From contig OX597814.1 of NCBI GenBank assembly GCA_951406725.2, forward strand, positions 95,418,001-95,482,000: a DNA stretch of 64,000 nt, given 5' to 3'. The notes under the pieces were generated by a model. That model was not told where the DNA came from. It was given only the letters and a program-made list of their open reading frames with translations, and made no database searches. Made by a program: the position numbers and the translations under genes. Shown one piece after another: positions 2,131-59,309 of the stretch. This DNA is from Octopus vulgaris (taxonomy: Eukaryota). Numbering within the stretch: position 1 is the first letter of the stretch; every line of letters begins with the position of its first letter.

Positions 2131-9819
<7,689 letters not shown>

Positions 9820-10269
9820 CCGGTTCCGTTTTCAGCAGAGAAAGACGTGATTGCCTTTGCTCTGTGAAAAAGTTTGCATAGAACGGCGAAATAACCCACT
9901 GTATTTGCAAAACGTAAAACTCTAAGTCATAGAGATCACTACAACACTTTGGTTAAAAATATTTTTAAAAATATATATATAAATATATACATATACACAG
10001 TAATTTTCATTTTCGCCGAAACGCACATGGTGCAAAAATAACTGAATCAAGTTATCTCCTGCAAGAAAGAAAAAGAAGCATCTCTCCTGAAAAAAATCCC
10101 GTAAACCAAAAAAAATAATCCAGACCACATTGTTGGATTAAGTATCAATTTCATCTATTTCATATTTTATTTATTATTCTATTTTATCTTTCACTTAGGC
10201 CCACATCTTAGTTAAAGTTGCGATCGTCATTTTGTTTGTTTACATTTTCAATATCTGTTCTCGATATAA

Positions 10270-11465
10270 TAATTTTCCAGATACTCTATCTTCTAATTAG
10301 CCTTAAGATTAAATTAAATAACGTTTAATATTGATACCGTCAAATTAGCCTTAGGATTAAATTAAATAACGTTTAATATTGTTTAATATTGTTAATAATT
10401 ATTGTTAATTAGCCTTAAGATTAAATTAAATAACGTTTAATATTGTTTTAATATTGTTAATAATTTTTCAGATACTCTATCTTCTAATTAGCCTTAAGAT
10501 TAAATTAAATAACGTTTAATATTAATAACGTCTAATTAGCCTTAGGATTAAATTAAATAACGTTTAATATTGTTAATAATTATTGTTAATTAGCCTTAGG
10601 ATTAAATTAAATAACGTTTAATATTGTTTAATATTGTTAATAATTACTGTTAATTAGCCTTAAGATTAAATTAAATAACGTTTAATATTGTTTAATATTG
10701 TTAATAATTATTGTTAATTAGCCTTAGGATTAAATTAAATAACGTTTAATATTGTTTAATATTGTTAATAATTATTGTTAATTAGCCTTAAGATTAAATT
10801 AAATAACGTTTAATATTGTTTTAATATTGTTAATAATTCTTCAGATACTCTATCTTCTAATTAGCCTTAAGATTAAATTAAATAACGTTTAATATTACCC
10901 ACACTCTAATATAATATTAACATTGCTAATATATTTTCAGATACTCTATCTCCTGATTAGCCTTAAGATTAAATAACGTTTTTATCCACACTCTAATATA
11001 ATATTAATATTGCTAATATATTTTCAGATACTCTATCTTCTAATTAGCCTTAAGATTAAATTAAATAACGTTTAATATTAATAACGTCTAATTAGCCTTA
11101 AGATTAAATTAAATAACGGTTAATATTGCTTAATATTGTATATATAATTTTTCAGATACTCTGTCTTCTAATTAGCCTTAAGATTAAATTAAATAACGTT
11201 TAATATTACCCACACTCTAATATAATATTAATATTGCTAATATATTTTCAGATACTCTATCTCCAAATTAGCCTTAAGATTAAATAACGTTTTTTTTACC
11301 CACACTCTAATATAATATTAATATTGCTAATATATTTTCAGATACTCTATCTCCTAATTAGCCTTAAGATTAAATAACGTTTTTACCCAAATAACGTTTT
11401 TACACAAACTTTAATATTGTTAATATTTCTTTTTCAAGTACTCTATCTTCTAATTAGCCTTAATA
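10270..11465 (+). repeat. Modular AT-rich tandem array, 17 copies of core ATTAGCCTTA(A/G)GATTAAA(TTAAA)TAACGTTT
   Basis: ATTAGCCTTA counted by eye at 10296, 10344, 10408, 10487, 10535, 10589, 10653, 10717, 10781, 10860, 10956, 11043, 11091, 11171, 11267, 11357 and 11453 (last copy truncated). Periods are 48-96 bp. Confidence 0.95.
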
Positions 11466-11524
11466 TCTTCCTGTCTTCTCTCGAACATAATTAGATAGAT
11501 AAACGGATAGACGGATTATCCAGC

Positions 11525-12435
11525 ATGTCCAGAGCATGGAGACGTGACGAGCTGGATTTATTCGTACGAGCATGGGAGTGCGCCGGCGGAGATAGCCCTA
11601 GCGAGGTGATTGCGGCTGCGCTGAAGAGCAGAGGCTACAAGAGGACAGCGGCTCAGATGGAGCGAAAGAGACAGGAATTCGTGCGCTCATATGCGCTTGT
11701 ACGGTCGCACATTGGCGCACTTGATGCCATCTTTGAGAACGAGCGGGGCAAAGATGGCAAGAATGGAGACGATGAAAGAAGTCACCCCCACCTGGTGGAC
11801 GCCCGGGAGGAGGTTTTGAATGAGAAACCTGCCCGGGAAGTGAACCCAGGTGCAAGTTCTCCAACCGGCAGCAAGGGCCATGGAGACGGAGAACCCGGTG
11901 AAGAGGTAGAGGGAGGAAGAAGAACTAAAAGAAGGACTGGAAGAGCTAAAGGAAAAGAAAAAGCTCAAGCAGGACCAAAGAGTGAAACAACCAGAATAGA
12001 AGTGGAACCGCAAAGGATGGAACCAAACAGCGCACACGGGTGTGTATGTTCTACCTGAGAGGTTCCTGCTGGCATGGAAAGGAAGGTGCAGGCTGCCGCT
12101 TTGCACATCGGGGACCCTGCCACAGAGACACGAGGCAGATGGACAAACCATCAACACAAAGAAAAGGGATGGACCACGCACCACCTGCCCCAAAGCGGAG
12201 GTACGCAGATGTTGTGCGCGCCACAAACAGCCAACATGATGTTGTCGAAAGAGCAGCTGCTGAGCAACAATCTTTTTTGTGCATGGCACAAAAGATTGTA
12301 CAGCAGCTGACCTGGCTTCATCAAACCCAAGCCCGCAGGTGGGACTACCCACTATATACCAGACCACCACAGCAAACAGACACAGGATGGACACCGCCGG
12401 CAACAACGTACACCTCACCTCGATACTCCTACTGA
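11525..12435 (+). CDS. LINE ORF1: Myb/SANT-like (trihelix-type) N-terminal domain + CCCH zinc finger, split by a -1 frameshift between 11986 and 12058
   Basis: 11525..12058 encodes WRRDELDLFVRAW...IAAALKSRGYKRTAAQMERK...Y...LDAIF, a Myb/SANT-like pattern recognised by eye. The -1 frame is open 11986-12435 and encodes CMFYLRGSCWHGKEGAGCRFAH (C-x7-C-x8-C-x3-H). Confidence 0.75.
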
Positions 12436-15383
12436 ACATCAGAGGACTGCAAACACTCAGTAACAGGACAAAGATCCCGTTCCTGAGAGACTTTGTTGCA
12501 TGCAATCAAGCCTTATGCATAGCACTTACAGAAACGCACCTGAAACCGGACATAGCAGATGCGGAGTTACACATACCACAGTATGCTGTACTACGGACCG
12601 ACAGGAAAGAAAGGAGTCATGGAGGTGTTGCTATGTACATCCGTGAGGACCTCACACCCCAGGTCCTCTTGTCATACTCAAACTCGGTGTGTGACACACT
12701 AATTGTACATATTAGGCAACTTGATGTAGTTGTGTGTGCTACATATCGCCCTCCAGATGCCCCAAGCCATGTGGGCAAGTTTGAAGACTGCCTTATAAAA
12801 ATAGAAGAAATTCTAACCACATTAGAACAACACATAGGTGTGCTTCTTATGGGAGACTTCAATCTGCCCAATGTCAGATGGCCCGAGGGCCTTTCTCTCC
12901 CAGGAATGACAAGATGTGAACGAGGACAGGCGAGGTCCCTCCTGAACCTCATCAACACCCTGTACATGGAGCAGGTAATACTCCAACCAACCAGGGCAGG
13001 TAACACACTGGATCTCTGCTTCACAAATGACATGGATCTCATCCATAATGTGAAAGTGACACCGACACTACTCTCGGATCACAACATGATAGAGCTGACC
13101 ATGTACGGGCCAAAAGAGAGCACGGACATGCAGCCTACAAGAAACCCTCAAAATCTTTCCAGCTTGAACTACCATAAGGCAAACTGGAAACAAATTGAGA
13201 AAGAGATCCTCAAACAAAACTGGCCTAAATGTCTCTCCTCGCCAGACATCGACGTGAAACTTCAACAATTCATGTCTGTAATGCAAGCCATATGCTACAA
13301 ATGTGTCCCAGAGAGAAAGGCCACTGTACACAAGAACAAAATCCCCAGAGAGAGGAAAATTTTAATGAGACGGCGTACGAAATTTTCAAATCGCCTAAAC
13401 AAACAGATTGAAAGCAGTGAAAAGTCCCGCCTAAAAATAAAACTGTTGGAAATCGAAAAATGTCTGCAACTCTCCCATGAAAAAGAAAGAGCAGACAAAG
13501 AAGCCTGGGCTATAGAAAACATAAAATCTAACCCCAGAGCTTTCTACAGGTATGCCAAAGAAACAGCTACAGTGCACTGTAGAATAGGGCCACTCCTCGA
13601 AAAGGATGGCACACTTACAGGAAAACCAATGAGGGTAAGTGAAATACTGAATGAGCAATTCAAGAGTGTTTTCACTCCACCCCTTGGGCATCTCCAAATC
13701 ACCAATCCAACTGACTTTTTTACCACTGCAGATATAAAATCAGAGGCGGCGACGATAGATTACATCGATATAAAGGAAGACGATGTAACCAAGGCTATAG
13801 ATGAAATGAAAACAGACTCAGCTACTGGCCCCGATGGATTCCCGGCAATCCTCCTAAAAGCATGTAAGAGAGTCCTAGCAAGACCACTGCAGTTCCTCTT
13901 TCAGAGCTTCCTTGCAGCTGGCAAACTTCCAGGAAAACTGAAGGAAGGTAAAATATGCCCCATTCATAAAGGAGGTAGCAGAGCGGAAGCCAAGAACTAT
14001 AGACCTATCTCTCTGACCTCACACATCAGCAAGGTCATGGAACGAATAGTCAGAAGGAAGCTGATCACCTTCCTTGAAGAGAATGACTTGCTGCCCGACA
14101 CCCAACATGGTTTCCGACCAGGGAGAAGCTGTTTAACTCAGCTCCTACAACACTATGACTGGGTGCTGAAACGGCTGCTCAACCACTCAAATGTGGAAGT
14201 GATATATCTCGACTTTGCAAAGGCCTTTGATAAAGTCGATCATGGAATGATATGTCACAAACTGCGTGATCTCAACATAGTTGGAAAACTGGGAGAATGG
14301 CTTCATGACTTTCTGAAGGATAGAAGTCAGGTGGTAGTAGCCAATGGGGCCACCTCCATTAACACACAAATAGTGAGCGGTGTTCCGCAGGGCACTGTTC
14401 TGGGACCACTACTGTTCATAATGGCCCTCTCAGACATGCCCTCAGCCACGCAGAGAGCCACGATCACAAGTTATGCAGATGATACAAAAGTTTCACAGGC
14501 AATACAGAACCCTGAGGACACTAAACACCTGCAATGTGAGCTGGACGAAATATACAAGTGGGCTGAAAAGAATAGCATGCAGTTCAATGCTGGAAAGTTT
14601 CAAGCTTTATACTATCAGCATGCAAAACTGAATGCAATACCCAATGAATACACTGGACCCGGAGGGATTGCAATCCCAGAGGCACAATCAGTGCGTGACC
14701 TGGGTATTCACATGAGTGATGACGCGACCTTTCATGTACATGTTGCTAAACTGACAATGAAATGTAGACGGCTGGCTGGATGGATTCTTAGAACCTTTAG
14801 AACAAGAGAACAAGAAACCATGATGGTCCTCTGGAAGACACTTGTCCTAAGCCACTTTGACTATTGCTCTCAGCTATGGTCACCATCCAGTGTCAAGTTG
14901 ATCACAGAACTTGAGGCGATCCAACGAAGCTACACAAAGAAGATAGCCTCTATGCAGAATGTAAGCTACTGGGAAAGACTCAAGAGATTAAAATTATATT
15001 CCCTGGAGCGTAGGCGGGAAAGATATGCCATAATATACATCTGGAAGATCCTGGAGGGAAGTGTCCTGAACTTTGGCATCGAGAGTTACGCAAATGCCAG
15101 AACTGGGCGCCACTGCGTGGTGCCTAGGACTCCAAACCTGCCATCAAGATGTAGGACAAGATTCTGTGATAGCCTGGGCTTCCGAGGCCCACAGCTCTTC
15201 AATATCCTCCCGAAGAACCTGAGAGACCTGCATGGGGTGGATACAGATGTCTTTAAAATGAAGCTGGATCTCTTCCTGTCAGGTGTCCCAGATGAACCAA
15301 CTTCACGGCAGGAGGGGCAGATGAGGGCAGCTGCATCGAACTCTCTCATGCACCAAATAGCAGTTGCTAGAAAGCCTCCATGA
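12387..15383 (+). CDS. LINE ORF2: APE endonuclease + reverse transcriptase (CR1 group), uninterrupted
   Basis: EN motifs [30 protein letters not shown] motifs [46 protein letters not shown]1-type C-terminus [17 protein letters not shown]. The frame is open from 12279; ATG 12387 just before the EN domain is the inferred start. Confidence 0.95.
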
Positions 15384-15472
15384 AGTGAAACCAAGTAGCA
15401 ACACCAAATGGCGGTGCCCCAGCATGGCCACAGCTCATAAGCTGAAACTAGAATCAATCAATCAATCAATCA

Positions 15473-15476
<4 letters not shown>

Positions 15477-15527
<51 letters not shown>

Positions 15528-15554
15528 GTATGTATATATATATATATATGTATG

Positions 15555-15593
<39 letters not shown>

Positions 15594-15594
15594 G

Positions 15595-15643
<49 letters not shown>

Positions 15644-15697
15644 TGTATATATATATATGTATGTATGTATGTATATATATATATATATGTATGTATG

Positions 15698-15742
<45 letters not shown>
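15477..15742. repeat. (TA)n/(TATG)n microsatellite
   Basis: Direct reading. Confidence 0.98.
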
Positions 15743-15743
<1 letters not shown>

Positions 15744-16143
15744 CATAACTGTGGAGGGAACCTTTGGAAGAGTTAGACCCAGGAAGACATGGGACAGGGT
15801 GGTGAGGCATGATCTTTGGATGCTGAGATTAATGGAGCCAATGACAAGTGATTGAGACATTTGGTGATTTGCTGTGCTTGAGAAGTCTTGTCAAGCCAAG
15901 TGAAGTCATAATTGAGGACAGTGCTGGTGACCCATAAAAGGCATCCACCACACTGTTAGAGTGGTTGGCATTAGGAAGAGCATCCAGCCATAGACACCAA
16001 ACCAAAATCAGGCTGGAGCCTGTTACAGCTCCACAGAGTGGAGGCACATGGCTTAGTGGTAAGGGTGTTGGACTAATGATCGTAAGATTGTGGTTTTGAT
16101 TCCTAGACCATAGAAAATGGACACTAAATAATGATGATGATGA
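15743..16143 (+). mobile_element. RTE LINE 3' end remnant with an embedded tRNA-like SINE head
   Basis: [24 protein letters not shown] parallels the RTE C-terminus at ~1380-1445(-). 3' UTR similarity and an (ATG)n tail at ~16130. A/B-box-like head at 16042-16110. Confidence 0.7.
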
Positions 16144-16144
16144 T

Positions 16145-16392
16145 ATATGTGTGTGTGAGTATGTCTTTGTGGCTGTGTCTGTCCCCCCCCCCATCACTGC
16201 CTGACAACCGGTATTGGTGTGTTTACATTCCCATAACTTAGCTGCTCAGCAAAAATGACCACTAAAATAAGTAGTGGGCTTAAAAAAAAAAAAAACTAAA
16301 TACTAGTGTCGATTTATTCAACTAAAAATTCTGCAAGGTGGTGCCCCAGCATGGCCACAGTCTAATGACTGAAATAAGTAAAAGATAAAAGA
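16145..16392 (+). mobile_element. SINE body/tail sharing its 3' end with the CR1 LINE
   Basis: GGTGCCCCAGCATGGCCACAG at ~16340-16360 is identical to the LINE 3' UTR at ~15413-15433. Related copies at 29625-29965(+) and ~58075-58530(-). Confidence 0.75.
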
Positions 16393-29624: not shown

Positions 29625-29965
29625 GGTGCAGATGTGCTATGTGGTAAGAAGCTTGCTTTCAAGTCACATAGTTCCGGGTTCAGTCCCACTGCATGGCACC
29701 TTGGGCAGTAGATTTGGTAAAGCCTTGTGAGTAGATTTGGTAAACAGAAACTGAAAGAAGCCTGTCATATGTGTGTTTGTCAACTGGTGTTGGTGTGTTT
29801 ATGTCTCTGTAACTTAGCAGTTCAGCAGAAGAGATCAATAGAATAAGTACTAGGCTTACAAATAAGTCCCGGGGTCAATTTGTTAGACTAAAAACCTCTC
29901 AAGGCAGTGCTTCAGCATGGCCACAGTCAAAAAGACTAAAACAAGTAAAAGAGGATAAAAGAATA
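29625..29965 (+). mobile_element. tRNA-derived SINE with CR1-like tail
   Basis: Head GTGGTAAGAAGCTTGC...GGTTCAGTCCC; tail CAGCATGGCCACAGTC...AAGTAAAAGA. Confidence 0.7.
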
Positions 29966-38294: not shown

Positions 38295-41200
38295 TGGGGT
38301 GGAAGGAATACTGGAAGGAGGGAGAGATGATGTCGCGCTGGCGAGTGAGAAGAAAACTTTCCCTTTTTCAAGCTATCTCTGAATGAGGCGAGACGTTGCG
38401 ATAGAGAGGTCGTGACAACACTTGTATAAATCTGCCAGCGTAACCCGATTGCCAGTAGAGGTAAGAACGACTTAATTTACGTGCCTTCAAACCACAAGCT
38501 ATTTTGGCACGTTGTTACCAGCTGCGTGGATATGTCCAAGAAGTGAATTTTTTATATTTTTCTGTTGCTCTTGTTCTTTTTATTGTAATGGCCACAAAAA
38601 TCTGAATCGGTTGTGATGTGTTGAGACTGTTCACTGGAGAAGGCGATGTGGTGACCTGGATAAAGAAGGTGAGACTCGTGGCAAAGTTGCAGGGAATAGA
38701 TGTGGCTAGCTTTACGCCGTTGTACTTAGAAGGGATTGCACTCAATCTCTACTTAGAGATAGATGGGGCGGACCAAGAGAAACCGGAAAAAATTGAAGAG
38801 AGGCTGAAACGCGGGGTGGCTTTTAAAGCCTACAGCAAGCTCGGGAGAGTGAGAGGGACCGGCGAGCAGATAGATGATTATGTGAGCGAGATTAGGAGGT
38901 TAGTGGGCCTAGCAGGGTTTACTAGAGCAGCAATGAAGCGGATGCTGAAGCTGGCTTTTGTGACCGGCTTCCCCGACCATATCTCTGTACGTCTGCAGCA
39001 GATGCCGGACATCGAAACGATGTCGGTAGGAGAGTTGATTGATAAATAGCGGGTGTTGTCACAAAGCGGCACTCGCGGCATAGCGGCAACAATGACCGCG
39101 TATACAAACGAGACGAAGAGGCAGGCAGCAAACAACGACAGCAAGAGTCTGGCGTGGCGAATGGCCAAGAGACCATGCTTCAGATGTCGAATTCCGTACA
39201 TGGTCAAGGAATGCACGGAACTGAAGCCAATGGTGGTGTGTTTCTGATGCGGCCATCCTGGGCATAGAGAGAATAAATACAAACAGAAAAATGAACAAAG
39301 GGGGACTACTGCGCCGCTAGTTCCCTCCAATACCAATTGAAGGCGTACCACCGAACGTTGCCTGTAGTGAGGCTTATGGTTGGGGCGAGGGAAGCATGAG
39401 CCCTCGTGAATACGGGTTAATAATAATAATAATAATAATAATTGTGTACAGTGCTCAGGTGCACTACAACTCATCTAAAGTGTATATATAATCAGGTGAA
39501 GTTTCGGCGGATTTCGGAAAGCATGAGGGCCTTAAAAGATGCAGTGTCATGGCAGTCAACAACTGACGCAGGCAGTTTATTCCATGCTTCAGCAACTCTG
39601 AGCGTGAAAAAATGTTTCCGAAAGTCATGGGAGCTGTATTGTTTTCTGACTTTGTAGGCATGTCCACGTGTGTTAGACACATGGAGATCAAAAAGGTGTT
39701 CAGTGTTGTTGTTGGTGAGGTGGTTGATAACTTTGTGGGTGTTTACCAAGTCCGTCGCCAAACGCCGGAGCTTCAGTGAATCCATGCCCAGGGAAACAAG
39801 GCGCTCAGAATATGGTAGGTGTCTGATGGAGGGTATGCGTTTGGTTGCACGTCTCTGGACAGATTCCAGGAGGTCAATGTTCTGTGCAAGATAGGGGTTC
39901 CAAATTGATGATGCGAATTCCAAGTGTGGTCGTACCATAGCTGTATATAGTTTTAAATAGATGGCTGGAGAGCGGCTAACAAAAGACCTGCTGAGTGATG
40001 CCAAGACACCCTCGGCCTTCCTGACAATCTTAGAGATATGCTTTGACCAACGCAAATCACTGCTGACAGTGATGCCTAGGTCACGCTCGCAAGAGGATTT
40101 CTTGATATCAGTGTTGTGGAGGGAGTATGTGAACGCAGGGTTTTTTCTCCCAAAATGCATGGTGGTACACTTGTCCACAGCCAGTTTCAGTTGCCAGTCT
40201 GTGATCCATTGCTGCATTGTGTCTAGGTCTGATTGCAGGAAAGAGTTGTAGACATCAGGATCTGTCCTCTTGATTTCAAGGTACAGCTTGATGTCGTCTG
40301 CATATTTCAATACTGTGGCATTCTTTAAATTGGCATCTATGTCGTTAATGTATGCCACAAACAAGAGGGGGCCAAGGACAGATCCCTGTGGTACACCCGA
40401 TGACATCTCATATGGTGTAGAGTGCTGTCCTAGAACTGTGACTACCTCCTTTCGGCTGAGGATGAAGGATTTCAACCAGTTAAAAAGGTCATCCCCCACA
40501 CCCATTGCAGAGAGTTTCACCATAAGCCTTTTGTGTGGCACAGAGTTGAAAGCCTTAGCAAAGTCAAGGTAGACAACATCCACCCATGAGCCACTGTCAG
40601 TAATCTGAGTAATGTCCTCAAGGAACTCGACAAGCTGGTCACTGCAGCTGGAGTTAGGGACAAATCCATATTGTGAGGGTCGGATGAGACTGTGAGAGCT
40701 CCAGAAGTTCCAGAGTGTTTCTCTGACACACGATTCCATCAGTTTTGCAATACAGCTAGTGAGACTGACTGGGCGATAGTTGACAGGTGATGTGCGGTCG
40801 CCCTTTTTGAACAGAGGAATGACACTGGCAGTTTTCCACTGCTCCGGAGTAGCACCATTGTTGAGACAGTACTGGAAGAAAATAGAAAGCTGGTGTAAAA
40901 GGAAGTGCCTGCCACGTTTGAGAAGCAGGTATGTAACTCCATCGAGACCAGGGGAGGCATAGTTGCGCTTATTTTGAAGGTGACGTCGCAGCATTGCAGG
41001 TGTAAATTCCATAGTTGTTATGGAGTTTGCTGTTAGTGATGGTGAAGATGGTACATTTTGACTTTCAACAGTGAATATGTTTGCATAGCACTCGGCAATG
41101 AGTTCTGCGCATTCCTTGGGGTCGTCAGTGATCTGGTTTGTGTGAGGGTTGCGAAGAGGGCCCACTGGAGAGTGAGGTCTCTGCTTTGAGTGCACATATT

Positions 41201-44200
41201 TCCAGAAAACCTTGCTGTCAGGATTGGCTGCTATGCACTGTTCAAATTCAAGCACTGCTTTTTTTGTCACTTGCTTGAGATGGTTGGAGGATTTATTCCG
41301 CTTCTTCCTGTTGGTGTCTGATTTATGCAACCTGTATTCCCGTTCAGCAGTCCGACGTTCCCTCCTGGCAAGTCGGACCGCTGAAGTTTCCCAAATTGCC
41401 CTTTTGGGGCGGTTCTTCTTTTTTTGTTTACGTGGCACTGATGCTGCACATGCTGCCCATATTGAGTCCAGGATACTCTGGAGTATAGTATTCACATCTC
41501 CAGAGTTGTAGAATTCACGCCAGTTTGGGTGCTGTAGTTCAGTGTGGTACAGGTTCCAATCTGCTCTCTTCCAATCGAAGGAAGCAGATTGGAGATGGTT
41601 CAGGTTTTTGTTGCCCGCAAGAGCCAGATTGGCGATGATCATAGCATGATCAGAGTCACCTAGAGGTTCCTCCGTAGTGCAATTGATAACCGCTTCAGGA
41701 GTTGTGGTGAAGAGCAGGTCCAAGGTGTTGTCGCCTCTTGTTGGAGAGGTGACTACTTGTGACCAGTTTGAGTCCAGCACAAGCTCAACAAAATCGTTTG
41801 CACTCTGTGGCCAATGGAAGGTCTCCCAATCGATCTCAGGATGATTGAAATCGCCTGCAATAAACACATAAGTGGCTGTTTTCCTGGCAGCAGCTCGGAG
41901 GACATTGCAAAGCTGTGTGTCCCGATGGTAACTTGGGGACGATAAACAACGCCAAGCAGGAGTGTTGACATGGTCATACGCACGTCACAGAAAAAAACTT
42001 CTTCTTGTGATTCGTTCAAATCGGCACAAGGAATTACCAAAAAATTTGAACGAACGTAGACCATCACACCACCACCACGGCGGTTAGTGCGGTCCTTACG
42101 GAAGAGGTTGTACCCCGTAATGTTGAAAACCCCATCACAGAGTAAGGAATGCGCCCATGTTTCCGTGACAGTGATGAAGTCAGGGTCAACACTTCTGACG
42201 TAGGCGTTGAACAAATGTATTTTGTTGCATAAACTGCGAGCATTTAAGGACAACAATTTGTACCCTGCTCGCAGTTTATGATGGTGTGTAGAGGATGGCA
42301 GGTTGTTCTGGCTTAGTTTCCCTGAGTTGCTGTAGTTTTTTTAGTTATTGTGGGTAGAGAGCACTCAGACCAGCTGGTATCTCTCTTCCACGTTTCAGCA
42401 GTCTTGACAAATCTCCAGATTTGTCCATCTTCCCGAAGACTGAAGCTTTCCTGTAGAGCTGAGTTCCTATTCAGGGAAGCCACTACACGTAGCTTTGGGC
42501 GTACATCGGACGGTAAGCCTGGGCGTGTTCGGAAGGTGGTCCGATTTTCCCGCCCAGCTTTAACTGAGGCCAGATGGTAAGAGGTTGCCTCAGTGGGGTC
42601 CGTAAAAGACAACTTGATGAGCCTAGGTTTTGGGCCAGGTCGTCCAAGGCGGATAGCACCCGTTGCACAACAACTCTGGTGACTGCAAGAATGGTTGAGA
42701 ACTGGAGAGGAAACACCAGGCTCAGAGCGGTAGATGGTAGGGAGGTCAAATGTAAGGGCGTCAGCGATGCAGAAATGGAGATACAGGGGTCTCTGTTGAG
42801 GCTGCAGGTGATTGTAGTTGATGAGGTAGTGGACAGTGCCGACATAGTGGTCGGAATAGACATGATCATACGATTAGGTGTGATGGTTGGCGGGGTAGGA
42901 GTAGAGTTTAGTGACCTGTGTGCCATGAGTGTGGAGCGGGGGAAGAAGACTGTAAGAGTGACATTACTGGCACAGACAGGGTCTTCCGTTGAAGACGAGG
43001 ACTTCCTTGCTGAGTTCGACGGCGAAATGTGGATGGTGGAATACTTCTTGAAAGGAGAATCTCTCGTACTGAGAAACAGGTTGAGCTGCAATGACCATAC
43101 CTTGAAAGGAGAAGCCAGATTTGAGTTCGAGACAGAGGTGAACAAATGGATAGAGGAGAGTATTCTGATGCCGTGGAGTCAGGAGACGACAGGCAGTGTG
43201 CTATCGTTGATGGCTGCGGTTCAGCCGACAAAAAGTAAGGTTCGACCGGTGCTAGACTTCAGGGAACTGAACTAATATGTGTCCTGTCATATGGCTGGCA
43301 AGGCAGCAGACCTGTGTGGAGAAATCCTTCGTGAGTGGAGGCGAAGGAGGGGGGCAACTACGATCACTGACCTCAAGTCGGCCTATCTACAGCTCCAGAG
43401 CTCCAGAGAAGTTGTGGAAGTACCAGCTAGTGAGGTACAGGGACAGGACGTACTGCCTGACTCGACTGAGTTTCAGCTTGAGTTCAGCGCCAAAAATCAT
43501 GGCGAAGGTACTCAAGGCAGTTTTGGGAAAAGAGGCCAAAGTGGAGCAAGCTACCACCTCATATAGCGACGATACCTTGGTAGATGAGAATGTGGCATCG
43601 GCAGAGGAAATCGTGGACTATCTTAGGACGTTCGGGCTGGCAACAAAACCGCCAGAGGCTATAGGAGATATGGCGTTGAGGTTCAGGCTCGAAAGGGACG
43701 AAATGGGTAGGCTTGTGTTTCACAGAGGAAACGAGATCCCAGACCTAAATGGGAATATAAATAGGCAAGAGCTGTTCTCAATGTGTGAGAAGTTGGTGGG
43801 TCACTACCTTGTCGCGGGATGGCTCCGAACAGCATGTCAAAAGGCGAGCAAAAGGAGTGAACTGGGGTTATTAAAGTGCGAGAGAAGACGATGGTGATGA
43901 TGCGAGATGTCTTGGAGAGAGTGCGAGCAGAAGATCCAGTGAAGGGGCAGCTGGTACGTGCCTGATACAAAGAAAGGGATTATGTGGTGCGACGCAAGCA
44001 GCATAACATTGGAAGTAATGCTGGAAATAGGTGTCGAGGTGGAAGACACAGCGTGACTTAGAAAGAAGGACGACTTCAACCATATCAATGTAGCTGAACT
44101 GGATGTTGTGTTGAAGGGTGTCAACCTAGCATTGAGATGAGGACTGCGAACCGTCGAGGTACAGACTGATTCTGCTACAGCGCGAGGGTGGGTGGAGTCA

Positions 44201-55197: not shown

Positions 55198-57530
55198 ATA
55201 ATGAAATTATTGTATACTGTGCTCAGGTGCACCACAACTGGTCAAAAGTGCATATAAAGCATATGCATTAATGTACAAATATCTGGGAAGTGAACAGTGT
55301 ATGAGTCAGATACATGCTTGTGTGTATATGGAGGGGAGAAAATCAGGTATAGTGTTGGCAAATCTCAGGAAGCATTGAAGTTTTGAAGGATGCAGTGCTC
55401 CGACAACTAACAACTGATGCCGGCAGTTTGTTCCATACTTCAGCAACTCTTAGCATGAAAAAGTGTTTCCGAAAGTCATGGGAGCTGTGCTGTTTTCTGA
55501 CTTTGTAAACATGTCCACGGGTGTTAGACAGGTGGAGTTTGAAAAGGTGCTCAGAGTTATTGTTGGTAAGATGGTTAATAATTTTATGGGTGTCTGCCAA
55601 GTCAGCTGCCAGACGTCGGAGTTTCAATGTATCCATACCCAGGGAAGTAAGGGGTTCAGAATATGGCAAATGCCTGATGGAGGGTATTCTCTTGGTTGCA
55701 CGTCACTGAATGGTTTCCAGACGATTAATATCCTGGGCAAGATAGGGGTTCAAATAAAAGGGGGCCAAGAACAGATCCCTGTGGTACACCAGATGTCATC
55801 TCATAGGGTGAAGAGTGCTGTCCTAGAACTGTGACAACTTCTTTTCGGCGAATAATGCAAGGACTTCAACCAGTTATAGAGATCATCACTTACACCCATT
55901 GCAGATAGTTTCACCATAAGTCTTATGTGTGGCCCAGAATTAAAAGCCTTAGCAAAGTCCAGGTAAATGACATCCACCCAGGAGCTGCCATCAGTGATTC
56001 GGGTAATGTCCTCAAGAAACTCGATGAGTTGATTACAGCAGCTGGAGTTAGGAATAAATCCAAATTGTGACGGTTGGATGTGGCTGTGAGACTTCCAGAA
56101 GTTCCAGAGGGTTTCTCTGACACAGGATACCATCAGTTTGGCGATGCAGCTAGTAAGACTGACGGGGCGATAGTTGACAGTTTCCACTGCTCTGGAGTAA
56201 CACCATTGTCAAGACAGAATTGAAAAAAAAGTGAAAGTTGGTTTAGAAGAAAGTACCCACCGCGTTTGAGAAGTAGGTATGTAACACCATCGAGACCAGG
56301 AGAGACATAGTTATGTTTATTCTTAAGGTGTAGTTGTAGCATTGCTGGTGTAAATTTCATAGTAGTTACAGAGTCCGGTGTCAGAGGTGATGGAGATGGA
56401 ACATTTTGATTTTCGACAATAAAGATGCCTGCATAGCATCCAGCAATGATTTCTGCACATTCTTTCGGATTGTCAGTTATCTGGCCTGTGTGGGGATTGC
56501 GAAGGGGGCCAACTGGAGAGTGAGGTCTCTGTTTTGAATGTACATGCTTCCAGAACACTTTGCTGTCAGGGTTGGTTGCTATGCACTGCCCTTTTTGTCA
56601 CCTGCTTGAGATGGTTGGATATTCTATTGTGCTTTTTCCTGTTGATATCTGATTTGTGCATTTTGTAATCCTGTTCAGCATTACGGCGTTCTTTCCTGGC
56701 AAGTCGGACTACTGTAGTCTCCCAAATTGCACTATTGGGTGGTTTTTTGTGCTTGCGTGGTACTGATGCTGCACATGCCGTCCATATTGAATTCAGAATG
56801 TTCTGAAGTATAGTGTTCACATCTCCAGAGGCATAAAATTCGAGCCAGTTTGGGTGTCACAGCTCGGTACAATTAGAGTTCCAGTCTGCTTTATTCCAGT
56901 CGAAGCGGGCAGTTTGAAGATGGTGACAAGTCAGCTATGATCATGGAATGATCAGAGTTACCTAAAGGTTCTTCACTAGTGACACTAATAATTGTTTCAG
57001 GAGAAGCGGTAAATAGTAGATCCAAAGTGTTGTTACCCCTTGTGGGGGAAGTAACGACTTGGGACCAATTTGAATTCAGCACCAGTTCAAGGAAATCGTC
57101 TGCACTTTGCAGCCAACAGAAGGCCTCCCAGTCAATCTCAGGGAAATTGAAGTCCCCCGCAATATAAACATAAATGGCTGTTTTCATGGCAGCAACTCTG
57201 AGGATATCAAAAAGTTGTGTGTCTTGATGATAATTTGTGGGGTGGTAAACAACTCCAAATAGAAGTGTTGATATGGTCATGTGTATATTGCAGAAAAATA
57301 CTTCCTGTTGAGATTGGTTCAAATCATCACAAGGAATTGCCGATAGATTTGAACGAACGTAGACCATCACACCCCCACCATGGCAATTAATGCGATCTTT
57401 GCGGAACAAGTTGTAGCCGGCTATGCTGAAAACCCCATCACAGAGTGCAGAATGTGCCCATGTTTCCGTGACTGTGATGAAATCTGGGTCGATACTTTTG
57501 ACGTAAGACTCAAAAAGATGTACCTTGTTG
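55198..57530 (-). mobile_element. Degenerate CR1-group LINE, same family as 39419-42660, with internal deletions
   Basis: Colinear EN/RT peptides (56891..57592, 56566..56820, 56133..56558, 55801..56187, 55343..55669). The YADD region is deleted near 55755. The 3' end matches (GTGCTCAGGTGCAC). 25-bp tandem duplication at the 5' junction (57518-57566). Confidence 0.92.
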
Positions 57531-57698
57531 ATAAGATAACAAATGTACCTTGTTGATAAGATAACAGCTTCTTTCCACGGAAATGACAACACTATGTAAT
57601 AATTGAATGAGTGACTGTCTTATCTGTTGTATGTCTTTCTCTGTATATCTTTCTCAGGCTTTTCTTTCTGTCACCTATTGTATTTTATTTAGTTACAG

Positions 57699-57816: not shown

Positions 57817-59309
57817 GTAAGTCATATGTAACATTTCCTAACCCTTTTGTTTTTATTTGTTTATTTTTGTTTTCTTTGTATTTTTAAAGGAAACCTCAAA
57901 CTTTTTATCTTTATTTTGGCAGCGTGTTGACTATATCAGTATATAATAGGAATGATTAATAGTCAAAAGTTTCTTTAGTATTTAATGTACAAAATTTTTA
58001 TTTTGTGACAATTTCATTTTTATGTTTCTAAAGCTATCTTTGCTATTTTGTTTTGAATATCTTCTGATATATATATCTTTTATTTGTTTCAGTCATCAGA
58101 CTGTGACCATGCTTGGGCACCGCCTTGAAGAATTTTAGTTAAATAAATCAACCTCAGTTTTTTTTTCTTTTTTTAATGCAGTACTTATTCTGTTGGTCTT
58201 TTTTGCCATATCGCTATGTTATAGGGGCATAAACCAACACCAGCTGCCAAGCAGTGATGGGACACACACACGCAGAAGACTGGAAATGACTATCACTTGT
58301 ATGATGATACTCATTTACAAGCATCATGTGACATCTAAATAAGGGTACACACACACACGCACACATACATATACACACACTTAGGTCCTTTCAGTTTCCA
58401 TCTACCAAATCTACTCACAAGGATTTAGTCAGCCTGGTGTTATAGTAAAATACGCTTGCCCAAGGTGCCGCTTAGTGGAACTGAACCCAAGACCACATGA
58501 TTCGTAAACAAGCTTATTAAGCACACAGTTGCTCACTTATCATAAATATCAGATCTTCTAGTACTCACATTTGTGATAGATTGTAATCTTATTAAGGAAA
58601 AAAAAATCTATCTTCTGTTTGCTGAAGTATTGACTCATACATTCCTAACAACTTTCGGAGCCTTTGTGATTTTTAAAATGATTAATTTTCAATTTATCTA
58701 AAGTTACAACAAAGTAGGTTACATAAAGATACAATAAAAACAATGGCATTTCTCTTGCACAGCTGGCTTTCTACAGTTTTGGATAGTTTAAAAGTAATAC
58801 AAAGGAAAAGATTAATGGTATAGATGGATAAAAAAATAATTGTTATGACAGATGTGCTGTGGCATAATGATACATGTCATCTATCACACCTGTTGTTATA
58901 CTGTTACTATGTGTGTTCTGTGGATGGAAGTAATGCTTTGTTGATGATGTTTAGTAGATGACGCATAAATGTATGTGTGTATGTATGCATGTATGTATAT
59001 ATGTATGGGGGTGGATGTTGACTTGGAAATTATAGATATTATCTTGTTAGTGTTTTTCTGGGTTTTTTTCCATTGGTAAATAACTGCCACAAAATATATA
59101 TTTGAAGTTGATTGTGTTGGTTGTCACTCAAAATCAAATGAGATAGGATTTGCTGCATAATATGGCATCTCTGTAGCTAAATAAATCTGTGCCAAAATTG
59201 AACAGATATTTTTAACATTTTTCAAAATTTTTTACTACAGCCACTTGATCTGAAAGTTTCCTGAAGTAGAATTTGTGGAGCTGATTTCATGCCTTGTTCA
59301 TTTTACAGA

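Follow-up and report, generated by a model that had tools for sequence, protein, structure and literature searches.

The sequence considered here is a window of 64,000 nt from Octopus vulgaris (GenBank assembly GCA_951406725.2, contig OX597814.1, positions 95,418,001 to 95,482,000 of the forward strand), and all coordinates below are positions within that whole stretch. Between two (TA)n tracts it contains a full-length long interspersed nuclear element (LINE), at 9820-15476 on the plus strand, whose first open reading frame (ORF1) begins with a Myb/SANT-like domain and carries a CCCH zinc finger. This combination is a real ORF1 type and apparently an undescribed one; the lineage of octopus LINEs that carries it has been active recently and is associated with (TA)n.

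The tract on the 5' side (2131-9819, 7.7 kb) and that on the 3' side (15477-15747) are target DNA, outside the element; the flanks vary among copies, and 5'-truncated copies also adjoin (TA)n. The element itself, all of it on the plus strand, opens with a unique 5' untranslated region (5' UTR) at 9820-10272, likely an internal promoter, whose start is common to most full-length copies and which can be aligned with those of families G, H, and B (I will refer to related families by letter). There follow an internal 5' UTR array whose 48-96 bp units hold 17 TTAGCCTTA cores (10273-11463), ORF1 (11525-12435; 303 amino acids in intact sister copies), and ORF2 (12387-15383; 998 amino acids), which overlaps the end of ORF1 by 49 nt. 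Within ORF1, residues 1-78 (11525-11758) form the Myb/SANT (trihelix-like) domain with four predicted helices, and the remainder consists of a disordered linker, a CCCH finger that resembles those of Muscleblind and likely binds RNA (12043-12108), and, in its C-terminal part, a long conserved helix (12232-12342; residues 237-273 where ORF1 is intact). The last, recognized from a predicted model and from conservation, possibly serves in multimerization. A 3' UTR with two predicted hairpins (15384-15451) and an (AATC)n tail (15452-15476) complete the element. The first hairpin, common to the sister families and to an abundant short interspersed nuclear element (SINE), has a folding z of only -1.5, yet is kept across families.

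The sequence-only reading that drew attention to this locus described an intact endonuclease-reverse transcriptase of about 1000 amino acids, and ORF2 is indeed open, with Pfam matches to both enzymes and their catalytic motifs. It combines an APE endonuclease with a reverse transcriptase, and neither RNase H nor a C-terminal CCHC motif was found in it. These characteristics, together with a short 3' UTR, a hairpin, a microsatellite tail, and frequent 5' truncation, are those of the CR1 group. Matches to the reverse transcriptase in the PDB are confined to those of L1, R2, and introns. Reverse transcriptase trees, which are quick searches without bootstrap and include no named CR1-clade references, group the element, with SH-aLRT support of 99-100, with unnamed elements whose ORF1s are of PHD or esterase type.

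The family is a young, CR1-like one. The median ORF2 identity among copies is 99.8%, and the closest proteins are labelled Octopus vulgaris and O. sinensis, one of them matching this genome at 100%. Exact patterns occur in the genome 119 times for the ORF1 start, 1503 times for the array core, and 4038 times for the 3' end, the last pattern also catching close sister families. Among the 39 best other genome matches, chosen by a query containing the last array unit, 31 have an open ORF1 and 18 an open ORF2, with both open in 14. The present copy is not one of the intact ones: a single base is missing from its ORF1 near 11994-11996, leaving a frame of 177 amino acids with the CCCH finger in another frame. 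The form with 303 amino acids is found in 21 of 29 other matches examined (two could not be placed by the script), the extra base is present in all four public sequencing runs examined, and one other copy (L009) has the same 177-amino acid frame. Either a genuine lesion or a mistake in the assembly may underlie the frameshift in this copy; a programmed frameshift is ruled out, since most copies have ORF1 in a single frame. The view that this is a potentially active CR1-group LINE therefore holds for the family, which by these sequences looks active, and appears not to hold for the copy that inspired it.

The same reading placed a 17-copy array close before the ORF1 ATG. The 17 cores were found at 10297-11454, the last beginning 71 bp before the ATG at 11525, but the array does not precede the LINE, as had been thought: it lies inside the element, about 477 bp past the fixed 5' end at 9820. 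Its 27-mer core, when read backwards, occurs nowhere in the genome, and the array is 21% GC. The 39 best other copies hold 5-37 cores each, mostly about 477 bp behind the same 5' end, and those with 34 and 37 (L059 and L060) arose via duplication of larger array blocks. Linkage to the element was assessed without selection, by hand comparison of the places listed for contigs C1-C4. Forty-four of 45 array clusters precede an ORF1 (32 by exact match, 12 in fetched sequence), and the array is present at 33 of 34 ORF1 starts, the remaining one being truncated just before the ATG. The physical linkage that had been supposed is thus borne out, and an independent satellite is ruled out by there being one orphan fragment (L139) among the 45.

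The array had also been called rich in dyads. Two units folded as RNA gave z values of 0.51 and 0.63 against shuffled sequences, the level of AT-rich DNA, and RNA folding found no special structure in array units or at the 5' end, so the description does not stand. A 5' UTR intron was suspected because array units resemble a branch point plus acceptor, and was rejected: contigs from four sequencing runs span the stretch from the last unit to the ATG and those from three of the four span the unique 5' part, with no GT-AG joint, although the check is weak, in that assembled contigs drop rare forms and that the array itself and families C and D lie outside it. The steps in read depth near 10010 fall at a repeat that was skipped and therefore give no basis for calling a start site.

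A separate question is whether the start of ORF1 is truly a Myb-type domain. Residues 1-80, modelled with 21 homologues, give a pLDDT of 87.9 and helices at 7-20, 25-35, 42-60, and 63-78, that is, a predicted three-helix helix-turn-helix with a long third helix and an added fourth, as in trihelix proteins. The best matches in a fold search with this model were RAD MYB (Z 7.9; root-mean-square deviation 2.5 over 58 aligned residues), LUX (7.6), the GT-1 trihelix (7.5; deviation 7.2 over 75 residues), ARR1 (7.5), and TEAD4 (7.4). Several results weigh against a Myb identity. All of these scores fall under Z 8, where the tool warns of a common arrangement; Foldseek found no match for the domain at E <= 0.001; and the third of the Myb tryptophans is replaced by lysine, the first being kept (two Pfam-positive host genes also lack the third). 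This family scores 20.5 bits against Pfam PF13837, short of the gathering cut-off of 27, and none of the 23 proteins of one homologue set reaches it; nor does the domain part have a sequence match in the PDB. From these scores one might argue that the domain is a generic helix-turn-helix bundle, not of Myb/SANT descent.

A second LINE family makes that very improbable. A genome search with PF13837 produced 43 matches over the cut-off, of which the 30 cut out comprise five apparent host genes and 25 loci of family Z, a distant LINE family in the same genome with a Myb domain and four CCCH fingers in its ORF1. Two natural family Z ORF1s pass PF13837 at 29.8-30.1 bits, and a profile built from the present domain without Z finds all 25 Z loci at 32-52 bits. 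By this transitive argument, the domain is genuinely Myb/SANT-like. Matches in the Atlas by feature and structure, made via homologue P0126 (0.81-0.87) and useful as leads only, are likewise mostly to Myb/SANT clusters. The same profile gives the five host Myb-like genes only 5-10 bits, and they were rejected as donors of the domain; in a search that gives weak evidence, none of its longer, fused forms scored.

The domain is also conserved in the manner of a working part. Between families its ratio of nonsynonymous to synonymous substitution is 0.08-0.17 (four of eight pairs being unsaturated), whereas the linker gives 0.33-0.52. In 11 of 11 representatives, moreover, the recognition helix carries a basic charge, +3 to +6. 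A basic recognition helix is of the DNA-binding type, an acidic one of the SANT type. The N-terminus of ORF1 is therefore, as predicted by the model, a conserved Myb-type fold under purifying selection, and it likely binds DNA. The sequence-only reading was right that a Myb/SANT-like start and a CCCH finger are both present, the best model matching Myb and trihelix proteins despite the Pfam score, and right also that the architecture is unusual.

Less can be said for its suggestion that the element encodes a DNA-binding factor together with its own multimerized binding sites, the ORF1 protein (ORF1p) binding the array core and controlling the element's own transcription. The array is linked to the element and the core kept through 5-37 copies; the array holds TAACG, a word resembling a Myb site, 19 times; and the family has recently expanded. 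There is precedent, moreover, in the Harbinger Myb-like protein, which the available text of PMC9710019 describes as binding a 9-bp motif in its own element.

The sister families argue otherwise. Sixty sister-family loci were fetched, with ORF2 identities of 53% to 98% where ORF2 is present. All 60 have the Myb domain, but the array core occurs in only one of the 31 copies with a placeable 5' end (one further, truncated copy holds five cores). Family E, identical in 21 of 24 recognition-helix residues, has no copy of the core, and family Z, with a 5' UTR of 470 bp, has no array. Each family has amplified a different segment of its UTR or none: B a 42-bp unit (up to 24 copies), H TTAGATAGATA repeats, and E longer duplications. 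A single-copy ancestor of the array unit is seen in the UTRs of H and H2, and no 9-mer is common to at least 11 of the 12 UTRs compared. An autoregulated element ought to keep its binding motif in every family that keeps the domain, and this one does not. Furthermore, the array begins 477 bp downstream of the 5' end. I consider autoregulation improbable, and the array an unlikely binding site for the domain. To judge from these comparisons, the Myb domain is far older than the array. The latter probably expanded recently within the 5' UTR and is probably dispensable to the domain, though it may act as an enhancer to which a host factor responds. That LINE 5' UTRs can undergo tandem duplication is already known, as the text seen of PMC5381506 relates.

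The 5' ends of sister-family copies begin with ACTTCCGG or AAGATGGCG. The former start is ETS-like. The latter, that of families C and D, is YY1-like by the account available in PMC5381506. Because the 5' ends resemble ETS or YY1 sites, they point to host factors acting at the internal promoter. Families C and D (L203 and L210) share a 5' UTR start unrelated to that of A, B, E, and H. Their UTRs contain long pyrimidine tracts and, around nt 500, GTAAG sites that resemble splice donors (in C there are also 17 upstream ATGs), and a UTR intron is possible in these two families. In the ORF1s of L033, L217, and L229 (families A, E, and H), synonymous divergence is 0.9-1.7 over the Myb part but drops to 0.06-0.18 by the CCCH finger, and their ORF2s are 95% identical; it looks as though 5' parts have been exchanged between these families.

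What does accompany the Myb domain is the (TA)n target. Of 30 copies taken in genome order, 22 have (TA)n on their 3' side, as compared to 3 of 30 for a control CR1-like family with 2161 exact ends in the genome (p = 1e-6), and (TA)n lies 5' of 26 of the 27 full-length copies whose 5' motif was located. A looser measure puts the background at 0.7% for the remainder of the window and at 8% for DNA lying 0.5-1.5 kb away from insertions. Both junctions thus fall within the same repeat, above the background and above other elements, as they should if the target is a microsatellite. The association extends to 31 of 31 sister-family 5' ends, to the flanks of family Z (12 of 15 and 9 of 9), and to every Myb-bearing family checked, down to 36% ORF2 identity. 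The endonuclease of Z is only 35-38% identical, no closer than those of marine relatives, and its tail differs. All 30 junctions start with A, most of them with AT or AAT, also outside (TA)n; target-site duplications are unreadable inside the tracts. Judged from sequence, then, the (TA)n target goes with the Myb domain, and the array does not. One full-length copy (L034) lies in a (TAA)n tract inside another short repeat, not in (TA)n. The window itself has copies of another CR1-like LINE at 39495-41984 and 56136-57619 (minus strand), the first of which, with a (TTA)n tail, served as the control family.

Use of the domain for the selection of AT-rich targets had been the other option offered at the outset, and it is the one that the comparative data favor, the binding itself being still presumptive. 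I tentatively propose, at a little under an even chance, that the Myb/SANT domain of ORF1p acts in cis to tether the RNA-protein particle to DNA of the (TA)n type, the array being a recent expansion. Transcription would start from the internal promoter at the 5' end, by the agency of host factors. ORF1p would coat the RNA through its CCCH finger and basic linker, and its C-terminal helix would multimerize it, giving several Myb heads per particle. These heads might hold the particle, in cis, on long (TA)n tracts, where the ORF2 endonuclease would nick at TA steps and the tail would prime through pairing of 2-3 nt of AT/TA. An engineered fusion of a Myb domain to an APE endonuclease confers repeat specificity, according to the portion seen of PMC2868851.

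The alternative is that the endonuclease and pairing by the tail suffice to choose (TA)n and that the Myb-like domain has some other role: non-specific contact with chromatin or DNA, retention in the nucleus, binding of RNA, or contact with a protein. In relatives, a PHD finger occupies the corresponding slot. APE endonucleases can set a target preference by themselves, as do those of TRAS1 and Tx1L, and the sequence common to all 30 junctions fits such an enzyme. The nearest marine relatives fit it too. Four metagenome relatives have a visible ORF1 (L265, L267, L269, and L270, L269 being partial), all with tandem CCCH fingers, and the three longer ones have a PHD or PHD-like finger. The Myb profile finds no match in these four, and no upstream ORF of 80 loci exceeds 8 bits. 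Because relatives carry PHD fingers there, the N-terminal slot may be one that holds general chromatin modules. I would give this alternative serious weight, if not quite an even chance. Set against it is the sharing of both domain and target by two lineages with endonucleases as different as those of Z and the present family. The three longer ORF1s each have a helical N-terminal module before the PHD or PHD-like finger and the tandem CCCH fingers, and L267 repeats the module in a frame of 916 amino acids. In the reverse transcriptase tree, the A-C lineage and family Z do not come out as sisters, and either the Myb domain replaced a PHD-bearing N-terminus early or it moved between lineages.

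A natural control is furnished by the SINE, whose 3' hairpin and GTAAAAGA tail are also found in family C. A stretch of 34 letters from the end of the SINE has 51,830 exact occurrences in the genome, and copies occur in the window at 16337-16374, 58086-58124, and 29903-29926; 40 loci (L423-L462) were considered. By its tail, family C of the LINE lineage is the likely partner of the SINE. If the SINE borrows ORF2 in trans, by analogy with Alu (as presented in what was seen of PMC3894237), it would report on the enzyme without the LINE's own particle. SINEs lie in (TA)n at 7 of the first 40 places, no enrichment over the 3 of 30 for the control LINE (p = 0.5), as compared to 16 of 17 for LINE families C and D. 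LINE stubs of 150 bp or less lie there in 9 of 16 cases (p = 0.007 versus the SINE). On the other hand, 22 of 40 SINE junctions have TA at the joint, as an enzyme acting alone would make them. That a SINE sharing the tail is rarely in (TA)n while LINE stubs are often found there favors a targeting factor that acts in cis, with age and survival bias remaining.

Those reservations and others count against tethering by the Myb domain. Short copies are in (TA)n less often than long ones (9 of 16 versus 13 of 14, p = 0.04), so some of the pattern reflects long insertions that were lost where they fell outside (TA)n. L104 and L105, both among the 30 copies, are neighbors and not independent, and no LINE of this clade without a Myb domain was found in the same genome to serve as a control. 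The partnership of SINE and LINE is read solely from the shared tail, and the copies of the SINE, which have a median pairwise identity of 88% as against 99.8% for ORF2 copies, are the older ones, so that their tracts may have decayed or their partner may be a different, extinct LINE. The papers on SINEs PMC4824008 and PMC4758252 name no octopus partner LINE in the text available. The fuller version of the tethering proposal has an APE-type LINE with a sequence-reading ORF1 Myb domain landing in cis in a (TA)n safe haven, the module being present in two deeply separated octopus reverse transcriptase lineages and the machinery-borrowing SINE lacking the targeting; I regard this version as possible, though somewhat doubtful.

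Two further observations concern copies of the lineage. Among 30 unselected copies (L102-L130), 14 are reduced to stubs 33-50 bp long and stop at the base of the 3' hairpin, which suggests that reverse transcription often stops there. A protein of 447 amino acids (P0130), which resembles a lipin N-terminus, ends in an ORF1 linker fragment of this lineage; it is possibly an exonized copy.

The ORF1 proteins of LINEs are seen as chaperones that bind RNA, and it is usually the endonuclease that is held responsible for choosing the target. If the Myb domain reads DNA, then target choice would reside in a small, swappable domain, a matter of relevance to retrotransposon-based gene insertion. For the host, the lineage amounts to several young families with open reading frames and thousands of copies, and it is the likely driver of a SINE with more than 50,000 copies.

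Other LINE proteins of the ORF1 type have been implicated in bringing a particle to a repeat target: HeT-A Gag is one, and the ORF1p of SART1, to go by the title of a 2004 article by Matsumoto, is said to be another. Both differ from the octopus protein in having telomeric targets and in being gag-like CCHC proteins with no Myb domain. Among LINEs of the CR1/L2 lineage, ORF1s have been sorted into types I-V (Metcalfe and Casane 2014, PMC4120745, in the text available). The octopus element resembles them in its two ORFs, its APE-reverse transcriptase ORF2, and a modular ORF1 whose domains are swapped between lineages, but the ORF1 domains listed there are RRM, CCHC, PHD, Tnp22, esterase, and zf/lz, and the words myb, sant, and ccch appear nowhere in that text, a survey of ORF1s in Jockey/CR1/L2 elements. 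Searches of full-text literature, at the level of listings and the openings of abstracts, showed no LINE ORF1 with a Myb/SANT domain, Repbase, Dfam, and most subscription papers being outside their scope. Surveys of mollusc and cephalopod repeats mention CR1 at class level only, in the portions seen (PMC10294476, PMC8967140), though members of this clade from O. sinensis may be listed in the LINE tables of PMC10294476. RTE-2_OV of Octopus vulgaris is likewise a potentially active octopus LINE, but it is a single-ORF RTE element, and the available text of its description (PMC9115989) has no occurrence of 'CR1' or 'myb'.

The array calls to mind rodent L1 monomers and the UTR duplications of mammalian L1, as treated in the available part of PMC5381506, with their variable tandem 5' UTR repeats, their UTR turnover, and the YY1-like start that octopus families C and D also show; it differs from them in its low GC content and in being internal, behind a fixed unique 5' end. 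The domain itself has two counterparts. PIF/Harbinger elements have a Myb/SANT/trihelix domain in an accessory protein of the transposon, but they are DNA transposons, and the motif of 9 bp to which their protein binds lies in the subterminal DNA of the transposon itself (PMC9710019, as far as seen), whereas the octopus UTRs keep no 9-mer in common. The other counterpart is that of R2 and other elements with a restriction-like endonuclease, where, by the text seen of PMC13708176, a Myb domain in a non-LTR retrotransposon helps to recognize the target; in those elements the Myb domain is part of the protein that bears the reverse transcriptase, whereas in the octopus LINE it lies in the separate ORF1 of an APE element.

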